Below are positions 10,549 to 37,095 of a stretch of 59,757 nt of DNA, piece after piece; position 1 is the first letter of the stretch; each line of letters begins with the position of its first letter. Below the pieces are notes generated by a model. That model did no database searches, had not been told where the DNA came from, and worked only from the letters and a program-made list of their open reading frames with translations. Made by a program: the position numbers and the translations under genes. Origin of the DNA: Candidatus Melainabacteria bacterium 17Bon1m (GTDB lineage: Bacteria; Cyanobacteriota; Vampirovibrionia; Obscuribacterales; Obscuribacteraceae); assembly GCA_032128875.1 (NCBI GenBank), contig JAVLKG010000019.1, positions 1 to 59,757 of the forward strand, in the 5' to 3' direction.

Positions 10549-10953
10549 TCAGTTCAGGTACTCTTTGGCGGGACGTTCGTTGCGAATCAGCACGCCGAGT
10601 TTGTGGAAAGACACCGTCACCGACGCTTGCCGGTTGAGGATGTCTGCCGCAAATCCGGATACTGCAAGGCGTGGCTTGCCGAAATTGTCCGGCTGACCGT
10701 CCTTGATGTGACCCTCGGCGATGAGCCTGGCATGCAGGTCGTCGTCGTATTCGAGATGCAAGACCGCTGCCAGCGGTTCTTTCACCTCCAGGCTTTCGGA
10801 CACTTCCACCGAGGAGGCGGCGGCATCCGCAAGCACCGTGTGGCACAGCTCGCCCAGAAGGTCATTCAGGGCAGGCAGACCCTTTTCAGGTTCACCAGCA
10901 GACTTGAAGACGTGCATGGCGAGCGCTTGAGTTGTTACCGCATAGAGTTTCAT
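10549..10953 (-). CDS. Hypothetical protein
   Basis: AGGAG SD before ATG at 10953. Confidence 0.7.
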   Translation of the reverse strand: MKLYAVTTQALAMHVFKSAGEPEKGLPALNDLLGELCHTVLADAAASSVEVSESLEVKEPLAAVLHLEYDDDLHARLIAEGHIKDGQPDNFGKPRLAVSGFAADILNRQASVTVSFHKLGVLIRNERPAKEYLN

Positions 10954-11196
10954 TTTTGACAATCTCCTAAACAAAGACTTTGGTCATGAGCAATCAGCGT
11001 TAGCCGATGAACTCAGAACTAACGACGCGCGCCTATATATAGATATGGTTAAGCACAAGTCGGTAGATCTGAGTCCACCGACCGGCGACAGCCAGAACCG
11101 AAGCTCCACCTGCCGCCAGCCGACGACTTAGACCGAAGCCACCCGCAGGCACGGAACGTTGCCGTATCCGCCGCCCGCGAGCACTTCGATAGGCGC

Positions 11197-11757
11197 TCAG
11201 CGCGCCGGGTTGGCAGCGAACAGAGCCTCGAGATGCGCCCACAGGGGAGCAGCCTCGATGTCGTCCGCCCGGTAGCACTCGTGCCGGAAGTGAGCTTGCT
11301 CACGCCGGTACTTCTCGAGTTGCTTCCAGTTGCCACTGCGGATGCACTCTTCGACGTTGGCGATGCGGTCGCAGAGCTTCAGCGTGGTCGCGCGCGGCGT
11401 TGACCTGATCTTGGGATAGGTCTTCGCTTTGCGTTCTTCGCGTGTGGCTCCGTCCTCATCGGTGACGCCGAAGATGAGACTGCGCGCCTCCTTGCACATG
11501 CCGATCAGCCAGAGCAGCCATGCCGGGGTTTTCTGATCTTCGGGAAGATCGTGACCCAGGCAGGAGCGCAAGAATGGCAGGTCGGTGATGCGGAAGCGAA
11601 CAGCTACCCCGACTACTCGGTCGAGGTGGTACTGGTACGGGTACGTGCCGTAGAGCTGCCCCCAGTGGAGGAGGATGGCGCACAGCCGCGTGTACCAGAA
11701 CGACAACCGTTGCCACCAGTTCGGCAGCGCACGGTATACACCGTTGTCGTAAGGCAT
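11197..11757 (-). CDS. HD-domain protein, RelA/SpoT-hydrolase-like (small alarmone hydrolase/Mesh1-like)
   Basis: HWGQLYG..PY.YHL, GHDLPED, LKLCDRIANV match HxGQ..PY..H, HDxxED and KLADR.xN motifs. Confidence 0.85.
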   Translation of the reverse strand: MPYDNGVYRALPNWWQRLSFWYTRLCAILLHWGQLYGTYPYQYHLDRVVGVAVRFRITDLPFLRSCLGHDLPEDQKTPAWLLWLIGMCKEARSLIFGVTDEDGATREERKAKTYPKIRSTPRATTLKLCDRIANVEECIRSGNWKQLEKYRREQAHFRHECYRADDIEAAPLWAHLEALFAANPAR

Positions 11758-11820
11758 GGCATATACTTCCTCTCGTTGAAACAGCGCTCTCTTTATGTTT
11801 GCGTCAGAGAGCGCGTTAAC

Positions 11821-12186
11821 CTAGACGCAGTAGGGGACGAGGTTGAACGGTGGCGGCAGATCACGCACCCAGGAGGCGAGCTCCTTGAGGTGCGCATACT
11901 GCTCGGACCGTTCCACCTGCCGGCAAATGCGGTCGTTGGCGCGATTGCCGCTGACCGCCTGAGACGGCGTGTAGAACCTGCCGCGCATCGCGTCGCTGTA
12001 GAGCAGCTTGGCGTACGTCGCGACAGTGTGGTTGCCGGCGATTCCGTCTTTCGACTGCAGCGCCTGGACCACAAGGGAGCGAACTCCGTTGTAAATCCAG
12101 TAGCTGTAGACGTTGACGGCGACGGCGACCACGAGCAAGATGAGCATCAGCCCACCCGGCCCACTCAGTGCAGATTGGAAGTTCAT
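11821..12186 (-). CDS. Hypothetical membrane-anchored protein
   Basis: TM LMLILLVVAVAVNVYSYWIY; GAGGAG SD. Confidence 0.7.
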   Translation of the reverse strand: MNFQSALSGPGGLMLILLVVAVAVNVYSYWIYNGVRSLVVQALQSKDGIAGNHTVATYAKLLYSDAMRGRFYTPSQAVSGNRANDRICRQVERSEQYAHLKELASWVRDLPPPFNLVPYCV

Positions 12187-12271
12187 CTCTAAACTCCTCA
12201 CAGTTTGACCGCGACCGGCTCAGGCAGCCAGCTTTCGCCAACCACCCGAACCGGTTGCAGTCGTGCACGCA

Positions 12272-12871
12272 TTACGCGACGCCCTTGCGGGTGAGCGTGA
12301 TGCTGTTCTCGGTGACGTCCAAGAACTTCACCTTCACCGTCACGCCCTTGCGGAGAGATTCGGGGCTGACGCCCGCGAGTTCTTCCCGTGAGAGAATGGC
12401 GATGAACTTGCCGATGTCCACCCGCTTTCCGCCGCCAGGAGCGTCGCCGACGACCGTACCGCGAACGGTATGACCGAGGGTCTTCTTCTGACGAGCTGTG
12501 GCGAGAACCTCCGCCGGCACCAGGTTGGTGGGGACGACTTCGGATTCGGCAGTGTTGTGATCCACGTGCTGGTGAAACACGCGGTCTTCCACGGCGCGCT
12601 CGCTGACGAGAATCCGGCGACGGGAACGGCTGTCCGTGTACGCATCCAGGACGCGCACATTGAACTCCGACCCGCCATCCGAACCAAGCGGCTCGCGCAG
12701 GCTGTCGAGACGGTCCTTGCCCAGTTGTCCGAACGGGAGCACGCAGCCTTCGCCGGTGTCCAGATCGCCGATGACCAGGCGCCGCTCGTGGTTGATCACC
12801 TTCACTTCGAAGCCCATGATGTCGCCGACTTCGGCGTACACCTTGAACTGTTTCGTTGATGTAGTACTCAT
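12272..12871 (-). CDS. Divergent two-S1-domain RNA-binding protein
   Basis: VRGTVVGDAPGGGKRVDIG...LRKGVTVKVKFLDV..NSITLTRK; N-terminal S1-like unit ending RRILVSER. Confidence 0.7.
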   Translation of the reverse strand: MSTTSTKQFKVYAEVGDIMGFEVKVINHERRLVIGDLDTGEGCVLPFGQLGKDRLDSLREPLGSDGGSEFNVRVLDAYTDSRSRRRILVSERAVEDRVFHQHVDHNTAESEVVPTNLVPAEVLATARQKKTLGHTVRGTVVGDAPGGGKRVDIGKFIAILSREELAGVSPESLRKGVTVKVKFLDVTENSITLTRKGVA

Positions 12872-25266: not shown

Positions 25267-25773
25267 ATGTCACCGGCTATCTACGACGAGAATTACGGAA
25301 TCTTCTTCGACAGCGAGGAGGAAAAACAGCGAGCACGAATAGAAGGTGTCGCACGTTGGCGCAACACTATGCTGACGATGCAAAACATCGAACACCTTCT
25401 TCAATTCACAAATTACGTCGTTCAGATGCAACGCCCCGAGGAAGACGAACTCTACGAGCGCTGGCGCGACAAGGCTGATTGGACGTTCCAAGAAAAGAGC
25501 TGGACTCTCGATGTAGGCTCGGTTTCGCTCAAACCTGTTGAGGGCAGGTTGCGATTCGCTTTGATCAATGGAAAAACCGTTCTCTTTTGTTCTTCGAGTG
25601 AAGGAGCACTCGGAGCGTACGTGTTAAACCTTTGGCTTCGCTCGCACTGCAATCATTCAACAGCTGATGGGCAGCGGGCGTACTGCAGCACGGATAACTT
25701 TCAACATTGCATGGAGCAGCTTGCAATGCAGCCGGAAAGCAGCGACAAGTCGGCTGCAAAAGAAAGGATTTAG
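25267..25773 (+). CDS. Hypothetical protein, paralog of next gene
   Basis: Shares INGKxVLF, WLxSxCN and NF motifs with 25777..26247. Confidence 0.75.
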   Translation: MSPAIYDENYGIFFDSEEEKQRARIEGVARWRNTMLTMQNIEHLLQFTNYVVQMQRPEEDELYERWRDKADWTFQEKSWTLDVGSVSLKPVEGRLRFALINGKTVLFCSSSEGALGAYVLNLWLRSHCNHSTADGQRAYCSTDNFQHCMEQLAMQPESSDKSAAKERI

Positions 25774-25776
25774 ACA

Positions 25777-26247
25777 TTGGACAGCATTACCACTCCCGAG
25801 CCGACCAGTGCGACAACCCGCTACAGCAGCGGACTCGAAGCGAGCGGCTCGCCGTTCGCGGCACGAACAATCGCCCAGCAGGCAGAACGCGCCTTGATTC
25901 GGTGGCTGCTCGACGACACGGTCTACGTGGTGGAAGCTGACGAGTACGCACAGCATCAACTCTACACAAGCTTCCGCAGCGAGATCGACTGGGACTTCGA
26001 ACCACGATGCTTCACCGTCAACATCGGCACTTTCGCCGACGCGCCGGTGACGTTGCGGCTGCTCTTCAGCAAGATCAACGGCAAGCGCGTTTTGTTCTAC
26101 ACCCCGTCGAGCCGCGTGGTCAACCACGACATGGTGGATAAGTGGCTGCTGAGCTACTGCAACCCCACGCGCTCCGGCGGCTTGCAGCGCGCTCACGCGA
26201 ATGCTATGAATTTCCACCAGGTGATCGACTTCTGCCGCCGGTCCTGA
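25777..26247 (+). CDS. Hypothetical protein, paralog of previous gene
   Basis: IGTFADAPVTLRLLFSKINGKRVLFY.PSSRVV...ANAMNFH. Confidence 0.75.
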   Translation: MDSITTPEPTSATTRYSSGLEASGSPFAARTIAQQAERALIRWLLDDTVYVVEADEYAQHQLYTSFRSEIDWDFEPRCFTVNIGTFADAPVTLRLLFSKINGKRVLFYTPSSRVVNHDMVDKWLLSYCNPTRSGGLQRAHANAMNFHQVIDFCRRS

Positions 26248-27222: not shown

Positions 27223-29364
27223 TTAAAGCCCAGTCGCGTCTCCTTTTTGGAAACCTTCAAGGAATCGAATTTCTGGATGCTTGATCTTCAACAATTGAAT
27301 ATCTCCTCGTTGCAGATACGGCGTCAGCGTGTACATGATGGTGCGCAGTTTCTTATTCTCCAACAACGCCTCGATACCTCGAGCGGACATATTTGTACCG
27401 CCCACAGCAATCGAAAGCAGATTGCGCATCTTGGAGAAATACTTCGCTGCTTTGTCTTCGATGTGAATGCTTTCAACGTTGAGAAACAGTAGGTTTGAAT
27501 CCACCATCGGAGCAAAGCTTTCATCGTTCACCCCGGTCACAGCACGCAGATCGAGATATTGCAGATGCTCATCATCTGCAAGAAATCTGATACTTAAAGG
27601 CGTCAAAGTTGTTCCGGAAATCTCCAGCTTCTTCAGAGAAGGCATGATGGTGAAATACGGAATCGCTTTGTCGGTCAAGCGTTCGCACCAGCTGGCACTG
27701 ATATCATTGACGGTCTTGCACTTGGAGATTGCGGCGGCGCCAACATCATCAAGCTCAGAACTGGTGAAAGTTACGTGTTTTAGCTGCGGTAGCCTTGTGA
27801 GCCAGATCAAGTTGGGATTGTCGATGTCACAACCGGTCATGTCGAGGTGTCTGATCCACTTCGCCCTGGCAATGGCGCGCAGAGCCAACTCGCTCACAAA
27901 GATAAAGCGCATTTGCATTTTGCCGCTCTTCTCTTCAACCTTGAGCAGTTTTAAAATGGTGTCTTTCGCGTCCTCAGGCTTTGGTGAATTGTTCTCCAGA
28001 GTTTTGACAAACTGCTTAGCTTCGGCGACATGTATCAGTTTCAAATCCGGGTAGGTTCTATTCTTTGCGGCGACAGGCGCAGCAAGGGGCTGATCATCAG
28101 TTTTCTTAGGATTCAGGTGTACCGTGATTATGGACGAAGCACTCGCAGAAATTGCCACCACCAGCGCAGTCATCAAATAGAGAAACGGACGGGACACGCT
28201 GACCATCCCATTTTCGACGCCAGATTGGTTTATTTGCTTAACTTGCTTATTCTGCTTAGTTTGCTGATCAACTAAAACGGTGTTGGCGAGCAAAACCGGA
28301 TCAGCCAAAGTACGCTCGACGGCCGCTAAATCAACCGCAACTTGACCGAGATTTTGGTATCTTTCGTTCGCACGTTTGGCGAGCATCTTCGCAATGATCT
28401 GTTCAAGCACAGGCGGAAAGTCTTTACCCATGGATGCTTCTTTCAAGCTGGGCGGTGTTTCACCCATGTGCTGCATCATCGTCGATAAAGCATTAACACC
28501 CACAAAAGGCGTTGTACCTGTGAGCACTTCAAAGAAAACGCAGCCGAGCGAATAGATATCCGCGCGTTGATCCACCGGGCTACCCGAACACTGCTCCGGG
28601 CTCATGTAGAGCGGGCTGCCGAACACCTCTCCAGTGCGTGTGAGCGCCTGAATTTCACTCGCTTCGAGCTGTGTAAATTTGGCGATACCAAAATCAACTA
28701 TCTTGACTCTGCCTTCATCGGAGGCAGACAGTCCATCGACAAGCATAATGTTGCTGGGTTTTATGTCCCGATGTATAACTCCGCGCTCGTGCGCGTATCC
28801 AAGCCCGAAGCAAATCCGCAGAAAAATTGGCACAGCTTCGTCAACCGTGAGCGTGCCGTGCTTTTCGACCAGGTGTGCCAAGCTCTGCCCGCTGACATAG
28901 TCCATGACCAGGAAAGGAACGCGTTGGTCGAGCAAGCCAAAGTCATGAACGGAAATCAGGTTAGGATGGTCGATACCAAATGCAGCGCGCGCCTCGTGTT
29001 GAAAGCGACGCACAGTGACGTCTGTTGCGCTGCGACCATGCAAAATCTTCAGTGCAAGTTCTTTTCCGAGAAAAATTTGCTCGACTTTGTAGACCATGCC
29101 CATGCCACCGTACCCGACCAAAGACTGGACACGATAACGTTCGCCTACAATGTCGCCTGGTTTTAGACACCCAAATACGTCAGCAGCAGGATCGAAAGAT
29201 TCGAGCAGCCCGGCCGGGCCGCCCATCACGAGCGATGAGCCGTTTTGAAAGGACGAGCCAGTCGTAGAATCTGAGGCGTAGGGCGAAGACGAGCCAACAA
29301 CCTGCCCGGACGGCGTCTTGTTCAAAGCCGAAAAATCGGCATTGGGGGTATTAGAACCGGCCAT
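27223..29364 (-). CDS. Membrane Ser/Thr protein kinase with C-terminal leucine-rich repeats
   Basis: GYGGMG, ALK, HRDIKPSN, DFG, GSPLYMSPE; one TM; LxxLxLxxxxI repeats. Confidence 0.93.
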   Translation of the reverse strand: MAGSNTPNADFSALNKTPSGQVVGSSSPYASDSTTGSSFQNGSSLVMGGPAGLLESFDPAADVFGCLKPGDIVGERYRVQSLVGYGGMGMVYKVEQIFLGKELALKILHGRSATDVTVRRFQHEARAAFGIDHPNLISVHDFGLLDQRVPFLVMDYVSGQSLAHLVEKHGTLTVDEAVPIFLRICFGLGYAHERGVIHRDIKPSNIMLVDGLSASDEGRVKIVDFGIAKFTQLEASEIQALTRTGEVFGSPLYMSPEQCSGSPVDQRADIYSLGCVFFEVLTGTTPFVGVNALSTMMQHMGETPPSLKEASMGKDFPPVLEQIIAKMLAKRANERYQNLGQVAVDLAAVERTLADPVLLANTVLVDQQTKQNKQVKQINQSGVENGMVSVSRPFLYLMTALVVAISASASSIITVHLNPKKTDDQPLAAPVAAKNRTYPDLKLIHVAEAKQFVKTLENNSPKPEDAKDTILKLLKVEEKSGKMQMRFIFVSELALRAIARAKWIRHLDMTGCDIDNPNLIWLTRLPQLKHVTFTSSELDDVGAAAISKCKTVNDISASWCERLTDKAIPYFTIMPSLKKLEISGTTLTPLSIRFLADDEHLQYLDLRAVTGVNDESFAPMVDSNLLFLNVESIHIEDKAAKYFSKMRNLLSIAVGGTNMSARGIEALLENKKLRTIMYTLTPYLQRGDIQLLKIKHPEIRFLEGFQKGDATGL

Positions 29365-29490
29365 ACGGCTACCTCAAAACGCGCCTCAAGCGAGGCAGCA
29401 TCTGGTTGTTTCAGTAGTAAGTGGATTATGTGATGGTAGAGGTAGCTTAAGTATACGAATCAAGCGTGACTTGAACGTGACGACCAAAAT

Positions 29491-30030
29491 CTAAAATCGC
29501 TCGCCCCAAACAGTAGGGCGCATAATTCCAATGATAAATCCAACTGGAACGAACAACGAACTGGCAATGTCAGTCAACGCATCTAAAATTCCGTACTGAG
29601 CGCTCATGTGAAATATCGCCTGGGTAAGCGTTTCGACCATTATGAATGGCAAAAAACCATATGGAGAAAACGACATTCCAATCAAAACGCCAAAGACAAT
29701 TGTTGTTCCAACTCCTCTGCCCATCTTGTAATCGATCACTCGCGCCAAAAGGCGGCCAATGATGATGCCCAAGAAGTAAGCGAGGATACAAGTAAGAAAA
29801 GGGACGCCTATAAATGGCAGTATCCAGCCGCCAACAAATCCAGCCACTCCGCAGATGGCCAAAGTCTTAGCAACAATGAGTGGGGTAATCGAGGTAAGAG
29901 GATTCTTCACGTTGCCGCAAGAATCGCACCGAAAGCCGACCGGGCATTGAACCATGCATTTGCCGCAGATGACAGCACTGCAGTCGATGCATGTTAGTTT
30001 CGAATCGCCGCACGAATGTTTGCTTATCAC
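29491..30030 (-). CDS. B-box-like zinc-finger membrane protein
   Basis: CIDCSAVICGKC...PVGFRCDSC followed by about 4 TM helices. Confidence 0.75.
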   Translation of the reverse strand: MISKHSCGDSKLTCIDCSAVICGKCMVQCPVGFRCDSCGNVKNPLTSITPLIVAKTLAICGVAGFVGGWILPFIGVPFLTCILAYFLGIIIGRLLARVIDYKMGRGVGTTIVFGVLIGMSFSPYGFLPFIMVETLTQAIFHMSAQYGILDALTDIASSLFVPVGFIIGIMRPTVWGERF

Positions 30031-30252
30031 GCTGACCTTACTTCTGCGCTAATACAAGGACTCATCATCTCACAAACGATTGCACTCGTCACACTGTTAC
30101 ATGCAATAGTATAAGCAGTTCCAAGCAAATAAACCATGGCGGCTTGCAGACAGAGACGGCGAAGTGCGCTATCTCCAACTGCAAGCCAGTCCAGTTATTG
30201 CTTAGTCGAGACGATGCTGATATAGCAGCATTTAGTGACGGACGGGGGCAGA

Positions 30253-30298
30253 GCGGTGCAGCCGCACTGAATCAGAGACTCAGCGACGACTGCACCGC
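30253..30298 (-). terminator. Stem-loop downstream of the Ubl operon
   Basis: gcggtgcag...ctgcaccgc 9-bp inverted repeat about 20 nt after stop at 30320. Confidence 0.4.
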
Positions 30299-30319
30299 AT
30301 ACTGCTATTAACGACTAGT

Positions 30320-31174
30320 CTACCAGCGACGAGGCCAGAGGTTGACGTAATTGCCAAGCTCGCTGCTGCCCGCGTTTTCGATATGCTGGATTGCCAGATC
30401 GACAACAACGGTAAGCTCGAGGCGGGCGGTCAATTCCGCCATGGGTTGAAGCGTATCGCAGAGGCAAGGGGCGCCATCCGCGAGTACGTTGGGAGCATTC
30501 ATCCCGGCTTTGAAGCCGTCGACGCGCTTGTCGCGGTTGAACCAGCGCACAACGCCGTTCTTTCCGCTCAGGTCGATGAGGATGGTGAAACGACCAATCT
30601 CGTGGTCATGGTTGGTCTTCGGATCGCTTGCCGTAAGGAGATCCGTCCTGACGATGACAGTGCTGCCGACAACGCGCACTGACTCCACATGCGGTGCCGA
30701 CTTGAGCGACTCGAATTCAGCAGCGAGCCGATCGCGACGCTCTGCCACAGCGTTTGCCTCAGCAGCAAAAGCTTCTTTGCGCCAAACGGTGAACATGCCG
30801 GCCGTCGCTGCGAAGAATTTCTTGCGAAGCTTGTCGGCAGCTTTCTCGGCTTGTTTCGTCAGCTTCTCGATGCGCTTCGCGCACACCTTGATGTAACGAG
30901 CGCGCTCGTTGTTGTCGGTTATCGGCGTGCGGCGCGGCGCCAATGCAGGCACACGAATCTTCTCGCTGAGCCGCATGGCGACAATGCCTTCGTACTTCGA
31001 GGCAGTATCCGATTGCACGGCGTCGGCTCCGAGAAGTTCGAGCATAGACTGGAGATGCTGCGAGTCGATGAGGATGGTGTCCGTCTTCTTGTCCAGCAGC
31101 TGGAAAGGAATGCCTGCGTCCGTAAGGCGACGACGTTCGGCTGCCCCGAATTCGGGGAAGGACAGCTTGGTCAT
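30320..31174 (-). CDS. Coiled-coil + prokaryotic E2 (UBC-like) protein, copy B
   Basis: APNVLADGAPCL resembles E2 HPNV..xG.ICL active site; ATGA overlap with upstream paralog; start MTKLSF. Confidence 0.72.
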   Translation of the reverse strand: MTKLSFPEFGAAERRRLTDAGIPFQLLDKKTDTILIDSQHLQSMLELLGADAVQSDTASKYEGIVAMRLSEKIRVPALAPRRTPITDNNERARYIKVCAKRIEKLTKQAEKAADKLRKKFFAATAGMFTVWRKEAFAAEANAVAERRDRLAAEFESLKSAPHVESVRVVGSTVIVRTDLLTASDPKTNHDHEIGRFTILIDLSGKNGVVRWFNRDKRVDGFKAGMNAPNVLADGAPCLCDTLQPMAELTARLELTVVVDLAIQHIENAGSSELGNYVNLWPRRW

Positions 31175-32388
31175 GCCGCACCTCCTCTGACTTTCGGCCA
31201 CTTGTGAATGTACTTGTATGTGCGCGTGTCTTCCGGATTGACCGTTTCGACAAACGCGATTGCCAGCTTGGCGGCGTCGGCGAATTGACGCTCTGCGATC
31301 AATTTCTTGAACCAGGGAGCGGTATTGCCGAGGCAAGCCTTGCCATTTGCATACACGTGCAGAGACATCATCTTGTCGGCATAGCCGTTGACCTGCCGAG
31401 TCAGATTCTTCCAGCGCACCGATTCACCGCTCTTGAGGGGGATGCGGATACGGAAGCGACCCATTTCGTAAACGTCGCCCTTCGCAGGGTCAGTGCAGTA
31501 GAGCGTCTCCGTCTCCAGCTCGATGTACTTGTCGGAGACCGAAACAGACCGAACTTTGCGCACCTGGCAAAGCAGGTCATATTCTTTGCCTAGCTCGTGA
31601 GTCGCCTGAGAGCGCATGCGGACGCTCTCCAGCTCTGCGACGCGCGACTCATCGCTGAGACGCTGCCACGCAGCCAAGGGCTCTTCGCGCTCGTCAGAGC
31701 CCTCTACCTTCTTGGCTTTGGGAGCCTTTTGCGCCAGACTGCGCTCGACAGCTTTGTCCAACTCAGCGACGAAATGCTCGGCAGTGCCGGTGGCAGCAGC
31801 CGAGCGGATGAGGTCGGCGACCTGCGCCATCACGTAAGCGAAAACGCGCGCGCCACCGAAGATTCCGTAGAGATTCGGATCGATCAGAAAGTAGATCGAC
31901 TCGTCTTGATACTCTGCGACAATGTTGCCATTGCCGTCGAGAATCGGCGTTCCTATGCCGGTGAAAGCATAGACTTCGCCGTCCCAGACCCGTTCCTGCC
32001 CGAAGACTTCTTTCGGCGCCTCGAGACACTTTTCGCCACGCGGCGAGTATCCGAGGTAGATGTGAAACTGACCGTAAGCGCGCCCTTCTTTGGGCTCGCC
32101 TCGCCTGATGCCGATTGGCTTGTCCACAACGATCCCAAGAATTTTGCGCGCGTAGGTTCTGTAGAACTTTATTTCGCGCAGCTTGAAATGTTTGCCGTAA
32201 AACTTCGGATCTCGCACCGGCTGCTCGTGCTGAGGGGCCGGCAGCCCGTCGGGATAGAGCCTCTTTATCGTCGAGCTGATCTCGGCGCTAGTGAACAACC
32301 GGCGCGAAATCATGATGAGAAGAGGAATACCGACGACGGTCGAGATTATCCAGTGGGTCGTAATAAATGCCCAGATTGCTAGCATCAT
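31171..32388 (-). CDS. Membrane-anchored prokaryotic E2 (UBC-like) protein, copy A
   Basis: N-terminal TM WIISTVVGIPLLIMI-SRR; C-terminal SLHVYANGKACLGN; colinear with copy B. Confidence 0.72.
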   Translation of the reverse strand: MMLAIWAFITTHWIISTVVGIPLLIMISRRLFTSAEISSTIKRLYPDGLPAPQHEQPVRDPKFYGKHFKLREIKFYRTYARKILGIVVDKPIGIRRGEPKEGRAYGQFHIYLGYSPRGEKCLEAPKEVFGQERVWDGEVYAFTGIGTPILDGNGNIVAEYQDESIYFLIDPNLYGIFGGARVFAYVMAQVADLIRSAAATGTAEHFVAELDKAVERSLAQKAPKAKKVEGSDEREEPLAAWQRLSDESRVAELESVRMRSQATHELGKEYDLLCQVRKVRSVSVSDKYIELETETLYCTDPAKGDVYEMGRFRIRIPLKSGESVRWKNLTRQVNGYADKMMSLHVYANGKACLGNTAPWFKKLIAERQFADAAKLAIAFVETVNPEDTRTYKYIHKWPKVRGGAA

Positions 32389-32461
32389 TACCTCCATTTG
32401 GGGCGATGCAATGCATCAACCCTGAGAGTTGCAGCGACGCAGAGCGCCGCCTGCTCCAGAT

Positions 32462-33160
32462 TTACTTGAACCGTTTGGTGACGATAGTCGGATCGCGCAG
32501 TCCGTAGAGAAGCTCGTTGTCCTGCGGACCTTCGACTTTCTTCTCCTGAATGGCGAACCAGGTGATCAGCTGCCACACGGCAAGTCCGGAGAGGAACTCC
32601 GCCGTCGGACCGACCGAGATGCTGGCGCCGCAAGCGGAAACTTCCGCCACTTCGTCGCCATAATCGGAAGCCGCTTCCCATCCACGAACGTGTGCGGGGG
32701 TCGTCGGATTGATCACGTAGATGCGCCCCTGGTCGGAACCCATACGGGTCTCGATCATCAGCTTGGTGCGCGACTTGTACTTGATGCCGGCGTTCCAGAT
32801 CTGCTTGCGCGACGACATGGAGTCGGTGAGAAGGAAGACCACCTCGCCCAGAACCTGCTTTCCGTCCACGCGTTCGGCGTGTGTGGTGATGTCGATGCCG
32901 GTCTGGCGCTTCACGATTTCCTTCAGCGCTTCGACCTTGAGCTTGCCGACATCGTCCATGCCGAATGCCTGGTTAGGCACGTTGTGCGCCTCGACGGTGT
33001 CGTCGTCCCAGACATGGATGTTCTCGATACCGAGCTTGGCAAGGCTGAGAACGATGCGCGAACCGGACGCGCCGACGCCGATGACGTCCACGCGGCGAGC
33101 GCCGAAATCATCAGGAGAAAAGACATCGATGTGTCTTGTGATATTGAGAGGCATCGTCAC
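32462..33160 (-). CDS. ThiF-family E1-like adenylyltransferase
   Basis: IGVGASGS, WDDDTVEAHNVPNQ, GKLKVEAL, LTDS..SR; single Cys (EVSACG, C177). Confidence 0.92.
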   Translation of the reverse strand: MTMPLNITRHIDVFSPDDFGARRVDVIGVGASGSRIVLSLAKLGIENIHVWDDDTVEAHNVPNQAFGMDDVGKLKVEALKEIVKRQTGIDITTHAERVDGKQVLGEVVFLLTDSMSSRKQIWNAGIKYKSRTKLMIETRMGSDQGRIYVINPTTPAHVRGWEAASDYGDEVAEVSACGASISVGPTAEFLSGLAVWQLITWFAIQEKKVEGPQDNELLYGLRDPTIVTKRFK

Positions 33161-34251
33161 TCTCCTTGCGCGTCAGGCGCTTTGGTGGTTGCGGAATTGG
33201 CGGCGGAAGCGGCGGCAGAGCCCTCCTCGAGCGCGCCACCGCCGGTGGCACCAGGAGGCAGAGCCTCGGGCGGTCCGGGAATCTGCGGCGCTGGCTGCGT
33301 CCCGGATTTCTCCTGCGCACGAGCGCGCGCGAGTTCTTCCAGCAGCGGAACTTCGCCGTAGCCGTTGCCGAAATCGGGCAGATAGCTGATGGTCACTTTG
33401 TCGCGAATCTCGGCTTCCACCTCGGCGCGCAGTTCGGCAGAGATGTGCAGCGGTCCTTTGGTCTGCGTGCGCGGCTTCGATACCGGGTCGGTGGAGAACG
33501 TCTCTAGCAGGCGCTTGGTGCCTTTGACGACCTTGTCTTTGAGGCCGTTCAAGCTCTCGCTCACGGCGGACAAACCGGTCTTCGGCTCTTCTTCTTCGAC
33601 CGCGGGCTGGGGTGACCAGATTTCCCACGGCACGTCGATGAAGTTAACCTTCTGCTCGTAGACGAACACGTCGAACGTCGCGCGCCCGAGCTTGTTCATG
33701 ATGCCGCGGACATACCAGTCGCAGCCCTGCTCACCGAACTCACGCATGGTCTCTTCGTCTTGAGGCGAAGGCGCGGTGTCCATACGCACATGCGAATGCC
33801 CCCAGAAGAACAACCGGCGCGTATCTTCACGGCGACCGGCTTTCATCAAAGACGAGTAGAGCTCGCTTTGCCCTTCGATCGAAATCTTCGCGTGCGCCGC
33901 ACCAGCGGTTTGACGCAGAAGGAAGACGTGCTCGATGTAGTAATCCCCCGTCTCCAGGCGCTCCGCGGTGCCCAGCCAACCGACCTCCAGGCGCGCCAGC
34001 TCAACGTAGAGCTGCATGCGCTTGTAAGCTTCGGGTGAGATGAGCACACGCGGAACCTTGCCCGTGTACTTGATCCGCGTGTAAGGCTGATGGGGAGTCA
34101 GCGGCGCGTCGGGCAAATTGAGATTGTCGAAGTACGCCCCGGCGCGACCATAGCCGCCCCGAGGGCCTCCGGATGTATATGGATACCGGCGCGTGGGTTG
34201 TTCGGCACGTTCGGTTCCAGAGAGTGTTTCATCTGACTTTTCGTCGGACAT
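33157..34251 (-). CDS. JAB/MPN+ metalloprotease (deubiquitinase-like)
   Basis: LEVGWLG (Glu) and HSHVRMDTAPSPQD = HxHx7Sx2D. Confidence 0.9.
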   Translation of the reverse strand: MSDEKSDETLSGTERAEQPTRRYPYTSGGPRGGYGRAGAYFDNLNLPDAPLTPHQPYTRIKYTGKVPRVLISPEAYKRMQLYVELARLEVGWLGTAERLETGDYYIEHVFLLRQTAGAAHAKISIEGQSELYSSLMKAGRREDTRRLFFWGHSHVRMDTAPSPQDEETMREFGEQGCDWYVRGIMNKLGRATFDVFVYEQKVNFIDVPWEIWSPQPAVEEEEPKTGLSAVSESLNGLKDKVVKGTKRLLETFSTDPVSKPRTQTKGPLHISAELRAEVEAEIRDKVTISYLPDFGNGYGEVPLLEELARARAQEKSGTQPAPQIPGPPEALPPGATGGGALEEGSAAASAANSATTKAPDAQGE

Positions 34252-34339
34252 AGGTGTCTCCTATCGGTAAGTCATGCACAGCGCAGCAACGTCTGACCGC
34301 TGCCTGCGCCATGCTTGGTTGCGCAGATAGGAAACGGGC

Positions 34340-34840
34340 TTAGTTGCCCAGAACCGAATTGCCCTGAACCGGCTTCAACAGGAGCACTTCCTGCCCGGCC
34401 TTGACGAGCGTCTTCATCGTGGCGGCGTCGCCGTCCACGCGGACCTCATGACCCTTGGGGTCGATGTTCGCCTTAGCGAGCAGGTCTGCGACCGAGACGT
34501 TGGAGCCCTTCTCAATAGCGATGTCCTGCTTCTTGCCGATCAGAAAGCCGACGGTGACAGTCGACTGCGGCTCGTCGCCGGACTTCTGCAGATTGGCGAG
34601 ATTGCCCTGGACCGGCTTCAGCAGAAGCACTTCCTGCCCCGGATTGACCAGCGTCTTCATGGTGGCATTTTCGCCGTCGACGCGGACGTCGTGACCCTTC
34701 GGATCGATTTCCGCCTTGGCCAGAAGGTCCTTGACCGACGTGGCGGAGCCCTTCTCGACTTCGACTTCCTTGCGCTTGCCGATGAGGAAACCGACGGTGA
34801 CCGTGGGATTGCCCTTGCCGAGCGAGAGTTTGTCTGACAT
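34340..34840 (-). CDS. Tandem di-ubiquitin-like (beta-grasp) protein
   Basis: Two 68-aa units, 53/68 identical, each SVxDLL..VRVDG..L..GQEVLLLKPVQGN. Confidence 0.88.
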   Translation of the reverse strand: MSDKLSLGKGNPTVTVGFLIGKRKEVEVEKGSATSVKDLLAKAEIDPKGHDVRVDGENATMKTLVNPGQEVLLLKPVQGNLANLQKSGDEPQSTVTVGFLIGKKQDIAIEKGSNVSVADLLAKANIDPKGHEVRVDGDAATMKTLVKAGQEVLLLKPVQGNSVLGN

Positions 34841-35412
34841 GTGAATTCTCCGATGTTTGAGGCAAGCTGAACGCTTGCAGGTTGAAGTTGTCTCGGCCTA
34901 AAGTCGCTTCATAAGGTCCACGAGCTCCAGTCGCTTCACTACCGCCAATGCACCTTCGAATAGTGCATGAGCGCCTGAGTGTACGCCACCACCTGCGGTG
35001 ATGAAACTACACTAAGAAAAGGAGGAAGGAAACGTACTGGTTTGTGGAGACTGGAAGGTAAAGGGGAAACAACTGGACTTTCAGTATTCAAAAAATGAGC
35101 CCACTAAAAACACTTCACAGCCTCTAAGAAACGAGCTACGAAACAGTACTTCATGACGCTATGTTGAGGAATTGATCTGTGTAAAACGGCTTTCACTGGC
35201 CTGCCTTGGTTCTTGCTTTTTGCGGGACGGTCGCGCGAACTAGAGCGAGCCCTCAGGTAAAGATTCGCAAACAGCCGACACCACGTAGAGGTTCATCAAT
35301 TCTGGCTCTTCAAAGTGAGTAAGGGCTAAGAAAGTGGTATGAGTTATTATGACAATAGTGGCTCATTTTGGTGACTGGAAATCCCGTTTTAGACATTCGA
35401 GCCAGCGAGTGC

Positions 35413-36195
35413 ATGCAAATAATTCCACCTATTCAAAAATCCCTTTCGGTTTTTGCCATTTTAATCGCAGCAAACATGCCGGCAAAACCAGCGGCAGCAG
35501 GCGACCCAGGTTGGCGTATCGACCAATACACGAACGCGCAAGGTAACATGAATGTTTCCATGACTGCGCGGGCAATTGAAATACACCTGCCTAAGCAAAG
35601 GTACCGAATTTACAGCAGCGCGCCCAACTGGAATGTCATTTATATCAACGAACAAATGGGCACCTACATGGACTTCCCGCACGACAAGTTCATCGGCTCG
35701 ATTATGGGACGCCTCGGCACTCAGCTAGGCAATGATATCCAAATGCTTTCCCTGCCAAAGCCTGTCATAGTGAAAGAAGGAGAGCTTGAATACGCGACTT
35801 ACGACCGAAATTTAAAAATCACTGACGAAGAACGCCGCAAGCTCAAAATCAAGGGAAGTGCCACGGTTTTGTATGCGCCACGAACGATACGCGCGAAGTA
35901 TTTGCGCTTGCCCAGCATTCCCAACCAAGCAAAAGAACTAGTCTGCAAAGTTGCCTGCGTGCCAATGAGCTTCGACTACCCGATCAGTTTCAATTGCATT
36001 GATGGCTTCAAAGAAAATCTGCGCGTGCTGTCCACGACGCTGACACGCAAGGAAAAAGCTGTGTCGATGACGCCGCCAAGCTTGAAAAGTTTAAGGCAAG
36101 TAAAAACCGAGCACGAACTCTACAGCCACGCGAAAGTAGACGATGTCTTCGAACTTTTCGGCGACACCCAGAACGAAGGGAAGAAAGGCAAATAA
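35413..36195 (+). CDS. Hypothetical exported protein
   Basis: Signal-peptide-like SLSVFAILIAANMPAKPAAA. Confidence 0.7.
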   Translation: MQIIPPIQKSLSVFAILIAANMPAKPAAAGDPGWRIDQYTNAQGNMNVSMTARAIEIHLPKQRYRIYSSAPNWNVIYINEQMGTYMDFPHDKFIGSIMGRLGTQLGNDIQMLSLPKPVIVKEGELEYATYDRNLKITDEERRKLKIKGSATVLYAPRTIRAKYLRLPSIPNQAKELVCKVACVPMSFDYPISFNCIDGFKENLRVLSTTLTRKEKAVSMTPPSLKSLRQVKTEHELYSHAKVDDVFELFGDTQNEGKKGK

Positions 36196-36384
36196 TCACG
36201 GCACCAAGCTCTTCCCATTGCCTTTACCTGCTCGCGTCAAGCACACCTTTTGCGCGCCTACCGAACAACCTCCAGCCGCCCACCAGCCGAGCTTTCCGGG
36301 TCTGTGATGTGATTGTGATGTTGCCGGCTTAGTCTTTCGAAAACCACACGGATTCCCCCGGTGGGTGCCCAACGAGGTCTGCAG

Positions 36385-37095
36385 ATGACTGAAGCAGCAG
36401 CTTCCGCTTTTCACGCACAATATATGCCCCCGTTCTCTCAGCAGCCGATTGCTCCCCGCACGCCGGAAGTTACGCGCGGCGCTGTCCTAACTCTCGAGCA
36501 AGAACTTATCGTGACCAAACATCTCGCCGAGGTCGCACCTCTAGAAACTATTCGCCTGGAAGCTTTCGACAAGGCACTGCGCATAATGCAGAAGCTTTTG
36601 CGAGGAACGACGACAAATTCCATGCCCACAGCGATGAAGCTGAAGGCTTGGGAAGTTCCACTTCTTCAATATGCTCTCGAATATTCGGCGAAATCGCCCG
36701 AAAACAGACGCATTGTCGTGCGCAGATTGGTCGAGAATTTGGAAACCGGCACCGGCTTCTTCTCAATCAATCGCTCAAAGCAAGGGCTGAAAGTCATTGC
36801 GAAGAAAACAGGTTTGTCGACCTTAGAAGACGAGCTGCAATCCGATAAAGACGAAGTACGAAGAACCGCTGCACATCTCCTTGGATGGATGAAGCACGAG
36901 AAATCAGTACTTCCACTTCTTAGAGCATACTGCCAGGGCGCACGTTCTGATCGTCGCATTGTCGGGCGTGTTCTCAAGCTTCATTACAGCCATCTTGCTC
37001 CTTTCTATGCGCACCGATACATGCCCGAATTTCATTCGACACTCGTCGCGCTCATAGAAAGCGAAAAACAATCAGAAGAGTCGCAATTAGACTAA
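36385..37095 (+). CDS. HEAT-repeat-containing hypothetical protein
   Basis: LQSDKDEVRRTAAHLLG...SVLPLL PBS/HEAT-like unit. Confidence 0.65.
   Translation: MTEAAASAFHAQYMPPFSQQPIAPRTPEVTRGAVLTLEQELIVTKHLAEVAPLETIRLEAFDKALRIMQKLLRGTTTNSMPTAMKLKAWEVPLLQYALEYSAKSPENRRIVVRRLVENLETGTGFFSINRSKQGLKVIAKKTGLSTLEDELQSDKDEVRRTAAHLLGWMKHEKSVLPLLRAYCQGARSDRRIVGRVLKLHYSHLAPFYAHRYMPEFHSTLVALIESEKQSEESQLD

Follow-up and report, generated by a model that had tools for sequence, protein, structure and literature searches.

The 59,757-nucleotide contig JAVLKG010000019.1 of Candidatus Melainabacteria bacterium 17Bon1m (the whole stretch is called the window here) carries on its minus strand an operon of five genes, which encode in order a tandem ubiquitin-like protein (Ubl), a JAB peptidase, a short activating enzyme (E1) of the ThiF type and, as the last two, the proteins A and B, which resemble ubiquitin-conjugating enzymes (E2s). 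On balance, we interpret A as a membrane-anchored catalytic E2-like protein and B as its paralogous partner, for which the active-site cysteine is optional, in a Ubl-conjugation operon of an uncatalogued family. No gene resembling a ubiquitin ligase (E3) is found within the operon.

Paralogy, gene pairing and probable anchoring of A and B

A and B are paralogues. A single BLASTP comparison aligns them colinearly over the C-terminal domain with 43 of 136 residues identical (32%, E 4e-16), which bears out the initial annotation of a colinear stretch of about 135 residues, and the motifs quoted there (EMGRF/EIGRF, VRW.N, V(N/D)G, LAI..(V/I)E and WP) were all found in the translations and the alignment. 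The homology is longer than had been noted: hhalign of the B family against 32 A-type proteins covers 192 columns (probability 100, E 3.6e-47) and takes in the helix ahead of the domain, which in B had been annotated as a long basic coiled coil and is predicted as a long helix at residues 88-135. The first ~70 residues of B also match the A-type profile (hhalign probability 94.6, E 7.1e-8), i.e., B and the soluble A-type proteins have homologous N-domains. This N-domain is missing from the A of the window, where a hydrophobic segment followed by Arg-Arg occupies its place. Given the 192-column homology and the shared N-domain, B can be described as an A-type protein minus its middle domain, and the A of the window, since the hydrophobic segment and Arg-Arg stand there instead, as an A-type protein whose N-domain has been swapped for an anchor. 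Residue numbers of A follow the 408-residue listing and not the probable 404-residue form.

The domain shared by A and B defines a large family. A domain-profile HMMER search over 1.84 billion cluster representatives matched 2075 of them at E 0.001, 1061 at 1e-10 and 187 at 1e-30, and word-index searches returned 10 and 12 relatives only. An alignment set of 183 domains from 169 proteins has the consensus M.APH(V/I)...G.ACLGN. Of the 183 domains, 137 combine the His with the Cys and 161 have the Cys; all 22 Cys-less domains are also without the His, which means that Cys is lost in 22 of the 46 non-His domains. Two classes can be distinguished, the His+Cys "A-type" and a variant "B-type" that is often without Cys. 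One split in a tree of 255 domains sorts 244 of them, with a support of only 0.50, leaving 188 tips (including 8 variants) on the His+Cys side and 67 (including 3 His+Cys domains) on the variant side. The variant group includes the B of the window, the other B copies of the same genome and most second domains of fusion proteins.

Gene neighbourhoods were compared in 62 loci, i.e., the window, three contigs from genomes of relatives, two regions of the organism's own genome, one of two phage-like records and 55 of 56 metagenome contigs; L047 and L055 were left out as duplicates of L014 and L015, and so were the short loci L004-L011. Among the 52 A-type genes that have 900 or more bases of sequence behind them, the next gene is B in 27, JAB in 19, another A in 3, a Ubl in 1 and something else in 2, and 26 of the 29 B genes with upstream DNA are preceded by A. 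A single protein combining both E2 domains, which the initial annotation had suggested looking for in homologous operons, was found as 14 fusions among the 169 proteins, with the His+Cys domain first in 13 of the 14; the fusion in metagenome locus L026, for example, adjoins a JAB gene.

When A 236-408 and B 86-284 were modelled as a complex, the ipSAE was 0.72 (runs of 0.68, 0.72 and 0.74), compared with 0.00 for the best control. The mark of 0.72 is reached by 116 of 157 solved complexes and by 2 of 215 mismatched pairs, a calibration that is only rough here, as our own alignments were used. The runs agree in at least 88% of the contacts, with a partner pLDDT of at least 86. The predicted interface has the A helix 240-274 antiparallel to the B helix 90-130, with smaller contacts between A 285-289/321 and B 221-243/272-275, and we know of no solved complex with a similar interface. 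The model supports binding, and the gene adjacency, the fusions and the complex prediction together suggest that A and B probably act as a heteromer, as the initial annotation had supposed.

Every A-family homologue whose N-terminus is complete shares the hydrophobic start of A. The homologue P0007 was shortened by gene calling, and the DNA of L002 reveals the hydrophobic segment. We called anchors with a Kyte-Doolittle window of 19 residues in the 34 A-type genes that have a complete 5' end and enough downstream DNA. Among A genes followed by B, 12 of 17 carry an N-terminal hydrophobic segment scoring at least 1.8, and three more (A2 type) have a segment of about 1.6 right at the start methionine, followed by Lys/Arg. 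The total is thus 15 of 17 A genes with B, as opposed to none of the 12 A genes directly before JAB, in which the best score (1.56) is internal. Membrane tethering, which had been proposed from the window's A, is therefore seen as a conserved anchor that goes with having B. The two A genes with B yet without an anchor are those of the phage-like L014 and of the fourth pair of the window's genome (L013). In the protein library, 38 of 135 His+Cys proteins pass a threshold of 1.6 within the first 60 residues, about four of them by eye through internal strands, while 1 of 34 proteins with variant domains alone does so. In every anchored case that was read, basic residues lie behind the segment and never ahead of it. 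By the positive-inside rule this pattern points to an N-out/C-in topology, and the segment fits a signal-anchor rather than a cleaved signal peptide.

Predicted fold and putative active site of the shared domain

We regard it as likely that the domain shared by A and B is E2-like; this is a fold-level call, and the domain would stand outside every known E2 sequence family. The rating is based on the predicted fold, on a conserved Cys in the loop after the beta-meander, which is the E2 position, and on linkage to E1, Ubl and JAB genes, so that the E2-like nature given in the initial annotation is upheld by fold and gene context. E2 entries (by title) make up 11 of the top 13 Foldseek rows for the B model, with a best E of 0.039 and none reaching 0.001, and a VIA fold comparison of B places E2, UEV (ubiquitin E2 variant) and RWD folds at the top, with an RWD domain as the single best match and 5ojw (UBC13-MMS2) in row 50; all of these fold scores lie below the tools' own caution lines. 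E2s dominate both lists and cover the whole domain, and the RWD domains of the kinetochore proteins Knl1 and Spc25 are also among the matches. For A, Foldseek was led by a glutamine amidotransferase fold (E 0.016), which is non-significant and was rejected, and a full-length A-type profile run against the PDB returned coiled-coil noise only.

At sequence level, a profile of the window clade (four A and four B domains) finds E2s in 13 of its 15 PDB matches; the best is UBE2B (E 0.099), which aligns colinearly over 92 positions with Cys on Cys. The HPN motif that precedes the Cys is absent, reading S-L-H in A, A-P-H in the family consensus and A-P-N in B, and with the position taken from the UBE2B alignment, His replaces the HPN Asn in 137 of 183 domains. 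No curated E2 model is reached, either by Pfam UQ_con or by the Prok-E2 families. The Pfam scan gives no family for A and only DUF5528 (0.091, below cut-off) for B, neither protein has a family in NCBIfam or PHROGs, PADLOC gives a weak Cas11 match for A (0.032) and no family, and none of 65 family proteins has any Pfam family at 0.001. These negative results, together with a deeper profile that has no E2 match and the RWD domain as best single match of B, would suit a domain that conjugates nothing, i.e., a UBC/RWD-like scaffold that binds Ubl, or another Cys-His hydrolase or transferase, with E1 alone activating the Ubl. The strictly co-varying His-x7-Cys pair would suit a thiol hydrolase as well. 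However, the predominance of E2s across both fold lists, the E2-like placement of the Cys and a gene tightly linked to those for E1, Ubl and JAB, in an operon which already has a peptidase, make this an unlikely explanation.

Every one of the 11 A orthologues carries both His347 and Cys355, and Cys355 is kept in all 32 sequences of a further set. The active-site loops of the two proteins differ, as had been annotated (LHVYANGKACLG in A and APNVLADGAPCLC in B). In B, Cys237 is kept in 11 of 13 orthologues and replaced by Phe in P0020 and by His in P0021, and the DNA of L003 confirms the His at this position next to an intact A. The loop MNAPNV, Asp233 and Gly234 are invariant across the 13 B-family sequences. 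Because the Cys is lost while these residues remain, the B loop appears to be under selection for something besides thioester chemistry.

The initial annotation had also raised the possibility of two active E2s, working as a relay or in parallel and each loaded with one Ubl unit, and had set loss of the Cys from one copy as the observation that would count against it. This possibility has fared less well. The Cys of B is at the E2 position in the window and in most orthologues, the Pro-Asn of the classical HPN motif is still present in B and absent in A, and multi-unit Ubls are commoner with B (9 of 12 loci compared with 2 of ~14, by reading). Against this, the two replacements among 13 orthologues occur with the A partner intact, 7 of the 14 fusions have no Cys in their second domain and many B-type domains across the family lack it too. 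A one-to-one match between E2s and Ubl units is not supported either. With 78% identity, the two units of the window's Ubl are far closer to each other than the A and B domains are (only 32%), which indicates that the two duplications differ in age, and the number of units fails to track the presence of B: A and B occur with a single unit in L003 (a window-type locus with a Cys-less B), L030 and L014, and two units occur without B in L015 and L021. We therefore give two active E2s a low probability.

Several points nevertheless weigh against reading A and B as an anchored catalytic E2-like protein and a Cys-optional partner. The sequence link to E2s appears marginal and leans on the B stretch MNAPNV.ADG..CL, since with a deeper profile of 66 domains the E2 matches disappear and no E2 entry of the PDB is hit at E up to 10; likewise, 0 of 66 family domains match Pfam E2, UEV or RWD at E up to 10. 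The models of A and B are moderately confident (mean pLDDT 72.1 and 65.2), with both active-site loops under 50, and the score of the A-B complex is a model confidence and not a measurement. The window's own B retains Cys237 and could be active here. Finally, the loci were retrieved with an A-type protein pattern, to which B genes without A are invisible, related loci are non-independent so that the counts overstate their statistical weight, and anchors were called with a crude hydropathy window in which 3 of the 15 score only about 1.6.

The Ubl cassette and known conjugation systems

The remaining genes of the operon encode the Ubl, the JAB protein and the E1. The Ubl scores 48.4 bits with Pfam ThiS (cut-off 22.5). 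Gly-Asn is the exact C-terminus of 20 of 29 Ubl open reading frames (ORFs), 25 of the 29 show Gly-(Asn/Ala/Gln) among their final eight residues, and in poly-Ubls every unit terminates alike, in Gly-Asn rather than Gly-Gly. The window's Ubl has five extra residues, SVLGN, at its end, which are absent from the closest relatives. The JAB protein has a weak PADLOC JAB match (0.0017) and no match in Pfam or NCBIfam; among its 41 homologues of at least 200 residues, 37 retain an intact JAMM motif. The E1 carries GVGASG and a single Cys, in SACGAS, which is kept in 28 of 29 homologues, and its gene begins with a GTG that overlaps the stop codon of JAB. Among 27 loci of at least 8 kb, 18 contain homologues of all three proteins (E1, JAB and Ubl), and 4 contain none of the three.

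A Ubl related to ThiS, an adenylase related to ThiF and a JAB that trims the carrier would also make up a sulfur-carrier pathway, in which A and B would be accessory. Such an arrangement of carrier, adenylase and JAB occurs in the CysO-Mec and QbsCDE systems, and here the Ubl passes the Pfam ThiS cut-off, the E1 reaches Pfam ThiF and the ThiF and MoeB models are its best NCBIfam matches. These matches are at domain level. Every NCBIfam equivalog cut-off is missed by a wide margin (the best, ThiF, at 60.1 bits against 159), and the carrier is a tandem repeat whose units end in Gly-Asn, not Gly-Gly, so that membership in ThiS/MoaD-ThiF/MoeB was rejected. In addition, neither the operon nor the annotated related loci showed a gene for a rhodanese, a sulfurtransferase or cofactor synthesis, and the cassette is present in two phage-like records. 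We thus regard a sulfur-carrier pathway as very improbable. PRTRC cassettes likewise combine a short ThiF-family E1 with small partner proteins (NCBIfam TIGR03734-03742). The window's E1 matches PRTRC_ThiF at 5e-10, with 39.1 bits against a cut-off of 144.75, and no other PRTRC model matches A, B, JAB or Ubl at E up to 0.1; PRTRC membership was rejected.

For the chemistry, topology, binding and targets of the A-B system, we infer the following course. JAB would cut the Ubl precursor after the Gly of each unit ending in QG-N, releasing the units of tandem forms, and E1 would adenylate the exposed Gly. The Ubl would then pass to Cys355 of A, which with His347 would serve as the catalytic carrier, with its N-terminal anchor fixing it to the inner side of the cytoplasmic membrane. 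B, an ancient paralogue whose Cys is probably dispensable, has kept its N-domain, long helix and predicted E2-like fold and is without the middle domain of A. It would bind A through the antiparallel helices and play a non-catalytic role like that of a UEV or RWD protein, and may hold the Ubl or bring in the target. The A-B pair would finally transfer the Ubl to membrane-proximal targets without a separate E3. The cut after Gly is proposed by analogy with Type II Bil, in which, according to the part of the source available, the JAB must remove one residue past the reactive Gly (10.1101/2023.09.26.559546).

As far as the accessible parts of the publications go, Bil comprises the Ubl BilA, the E2 BilB, the JAB BilC and the E1 BilD in Types I and II (10.1101/2023.09.26.559546; 10.1101/2023.09.04.556158; PMC11601596), and resembles the window in having separate Ubl, E2-like, JAB and E1 genes and no E3. 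Type I BilA is described there as ending in Gly (10.1101/2023.09.04.556158). BilD, however, is described as having inactive as well as active adenylation domains and also a Cys domain (PMC11601596, section 5), in contrast to the 232-residue E1 of the window with its one ThiF domain, and Bil as described in these parts has one E2 and neither a pseudo-E2 partner nor an anchor. Bil membership was rejected, the E1 being single-domain and not multidomain. PDB sequence searches with A, B, the E1 and the domain profiles matched no solved Bil chain.

Operon types 6a-6e of Iyer, Burroughs and Aravind 2006 are likewise bacterial operons of Ubl, E1-like, JAB and E2-like genes (PMC1779556, as far as available). 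Type 6e, now called Bub, is described in the available text as having a DUF6527 protease, oxyester chemistry and fusions of either JAB or E2 to E1 (PMC11601596); here the JAB, E1 and E2-like genes are separate and no DUF6527 was found in the six operon and neighbour proteins scanned, and membership was rejected on this description. According to the same available part, the E2 of type 6d has a His behind the Cys and a helical partner (PMC1779556), whereas the His here lies 8 residues before the Cys; type 6d was rejected on the His position and the helical partner protein. Type 6e also pairs poly-Ubls with an inactive RWD-like E2-fold domain, as the accessible part of the source has it (PMC1779556), and a non-catalytic E2-fold partner is therefore not new in principle. 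In the window, by comparison, the inactive-type domain is a separate full paralogue following the active one.

In eukaryotes, the E2-UEV heterodimer Ubc13-Mms2 and the membrane-anchored E2s Ubc6/UBE2J offer the nearest parallels. As in E2-UEV pairs, an active E2 would work with an E2-fold partner that needs no Cys, and as in Ubc6/UBE2J, an E2 would be held on a membrane facing the cytosol. The predicted contact here is, however, mainly through antiparallel helices ahead of the cores, the window's B still has its Cys, the anchor of A is N-terminal and no sequence relationship to eukaryotic E2s was detected. Kinetochore Knl1 and Spc25 are RWD domain pairs linked by coiled coils; these are structural, without Cys or Ubl machinery, and their resemblance to A-B is architectural only.

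Collectively, the operon is of a known kind, a bacterial Ubl-E1-E2-JAB operon, and lacks the defining features of each named family with which it was compared. What is new is the pair of active and variant paralogues as separate, translationally coupled genes, the link of this pair to an N-terminal anchor, the His-x7-Cys active-site variant and, in the predicted complex, the helix-mediated pairing of A and B. No description of this E2-like family or of a bacterial E2/pseudo-E2 pair was found in the open papers, taken without their supplements.

Locus, distribution and significance

Positions of the operon genes, their domains and a neighbouring gene in the window
Feature	Position	Strand	Remarks
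Ubl precursor, 166 residues	34340..34840	minus	two tandem beta-grasp units; Pfam ThiS 1.4e-12, 2 stretches
Ubl unit 1, residues 12-80	34601..34807	minus	terminates KPVQGN
Ubl unit 2, residues 93-161	34358..34564	minus	terminates KPVQGN, then 5 more residues
JAB/JAMM-type metallopeptidase, 364 residues	33157..34251	minus	intact HSHVRMDTAPSPQD (HxHx7SxxD) in translation
Short single-domain E1, ThiF type, 232 residues	32462..33160	minus	Pfam ThiF 4.8e-19, residues 22-203
A, putative anchored catalytic E2-like protein, 408 residues as listed	31171..32397	minus	probable start 32385
A residues 5-32, hydrophobic N-terminal segment then RR	32302..32385	minus	read as N-out/C-in anchor
A residues 62-195, middle alpha/beta domain without assigned function	31813..32214	minus	
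A residues 240-277, long helix	31567..31680	minus	predicted antiparallel pairing with B helix
A residues 278-404, E2-like core	31186..31566	minus	His347 31357..31359, Cys355 31333..31335
B, E2-like variant partner, 284 residues	30320..31174	minus	
B residues 1-72, small alpha/beta N-domain	30959..31174	minus	pLDDT 83-90
B residues 88-135, long basic helix	30770..30913	minus	predicted A interface
B residues 142-284, variant E2-like core	30323..30751	minus	Asn229 30488..30490, Cys237 30464..30466
Neighbour, possibly associated, 179 residues	29491..30030	minus	Cys-rich N-terminus and ~4 hydrophobic segments

The starts of A and B differ from those listed. A GGAGG lies 5 nt upstream of Met5 of A and homologues begin MLAIW or MQAIW; because of this spacing and these homologous starts, Met5 is probably the true start, giving 404 residues. 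B as listed opens at a TTG (31336). The ATG at 31174 has an AGGAGG upstream and a 4-nt ATGA overlap with the stop of A, and 12 of 12 B homologues measure 283-289 residues and begin M(T/A)KLSF; on these sequence signals, the ATG is the real start of B.

The gene at 29491..30030 starts 290 bp downstream of B, and a homologue follows B in every one of the 7 loci of the window type and in none of the others; the spacing varies, and another ORF intervenes in L002. Seven Cys are invariant in four sequences, and Pfam gives only a non-significant B-box (0.58). Its product might be a Zn-finger membrane protein that is a partner or a target of the anchored E2. Scans for promoters and terminators gave about what chance predicts (3 found compared with 2.4 expected, and 8 compared with 6.5), and are uninformative on co-transcription of this gene. 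For the region 28500-36500, three runs labelled transcriptomic RNA-Seq give the same 12,338-base contig as a DNA run and also contain contigs of 72-138 kb; they thus behave like DNA libraries and show no transcription.

Further out, the flanking genes encode an acyl-CoA dehydrogenase (read from the translation), a UDP-GlcNAc 2-epimerase, Ser/Thr kinases and a TonB-C protein, i.e., the operon lies among housekeeping and signalling genes and not in a defence island. Its G+C content (30001-34000) is 57-60%, compared with 49-53% in the 4 kb on each side, which is compatible with acquisition from elsewhere, though the locus is syntenic in related genomes. A second block of high G+C, about 60-63%, spans 2-18 kb of the window. 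Two adjoining plus-strand ORFs at 25267-25773 (168 residues) and 25777-26247 (156 residues) look paralogous by eye, and neither has a Pfam family.

The closest loci are in metagenome-assembled genomes labelled Melainabacteria, Obscuribacterales or Cyanobacteria and keep the full neighbourhood of Ubl, JAB, E1, A, B, Zn-finger membrane protein and kinase. The domain is present in 8 of 12 genomes of the same genus, in 13 of 36 of the same family and in none of 24 from other families of the class, and a phylum-wide sample, dominated by genomes of ~2 Mb, has it in 0 of 300 other genomes. Two phage-like IMG/VR records, L014 and L015, of 207 and 188 kb (CheckV 100% and 99% complete) carry the cassette near Thg1-like, thymidylate synthase and polynucleotide-kinase-like genes, one of them with a terminase match. 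L014 holds A together with a B-type gene that has no Cys, JAB, E1 and a Ubl of one unit, and L015 holds two A-type genes and two JAB homologues. With the A domain and two family members as queries, tblastn found no match in 72,556 plasmids and, in 50,697 phage records, nothing but one marginal 27% coiled-coil match.

The window's genome has four A-B pairs. Two of them lie in L012 (contig 7: 238000-257900), with a Gly-Asn Ubl of three units, a 588-residue JAB homologue, an E1 65% identical to that of the window and an adjoining ClpB-like AAA+ gene; L013 (contig 8: 38000-57900) has an A-B pair and no E1, JAB or Ubl within 19.9 kb. In L059, a 647-residue ORF (10568-12508, plus strand) joins a Gly-Asn-type Ubl unit to an apparent AAA+ ATPase (GPPGNGKT), in a cassette with two A-type genes, JAB and E1. 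This ORF and the ClpB-like neighbour in L012 hint at a link to protein unfolding.

The four A-B pairs of the genome stand beside only two E1/JAB/Ubl sets in the regions examined. A more far-reaching proposal, which we hold to be doubtful, is that A-B is the prokaryotic and phage counterpart of the E2-UEV principle, in which the helix-zipped, Cys-optional paralogue would replace an E3 as specificity or chain-building factor and several pairs would share few E1s in a hierarchical Ubl system that marks membrane-proximal targets.

Real protein tagging by bacterial systems has been shown only recently, for CBASS Cap2, Bil and Bub, all of which, to our knowledge, use a single E2 module. The operon described here is part of a far larger family, with 2075 cluster representatives of the E2-like domain, and this family reaches no model in Pfam, NCBIfam, PADLOC or PHROGs. 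About half of the inspected operons add a Cys-optional E2-like subunit, and these tie the catalytic subunit to the membrane. If our interpretation of A and B is true, the system would be a bacterial example of an active E2 working with a pseudo-E2, a directly testable case of target choice without an E3, and a new variant of the E2 active site, in which His stands where HPN has its Asn. Its presence in two phage-like records of ~190-207 kb may also matter for the conflict between phage and host.

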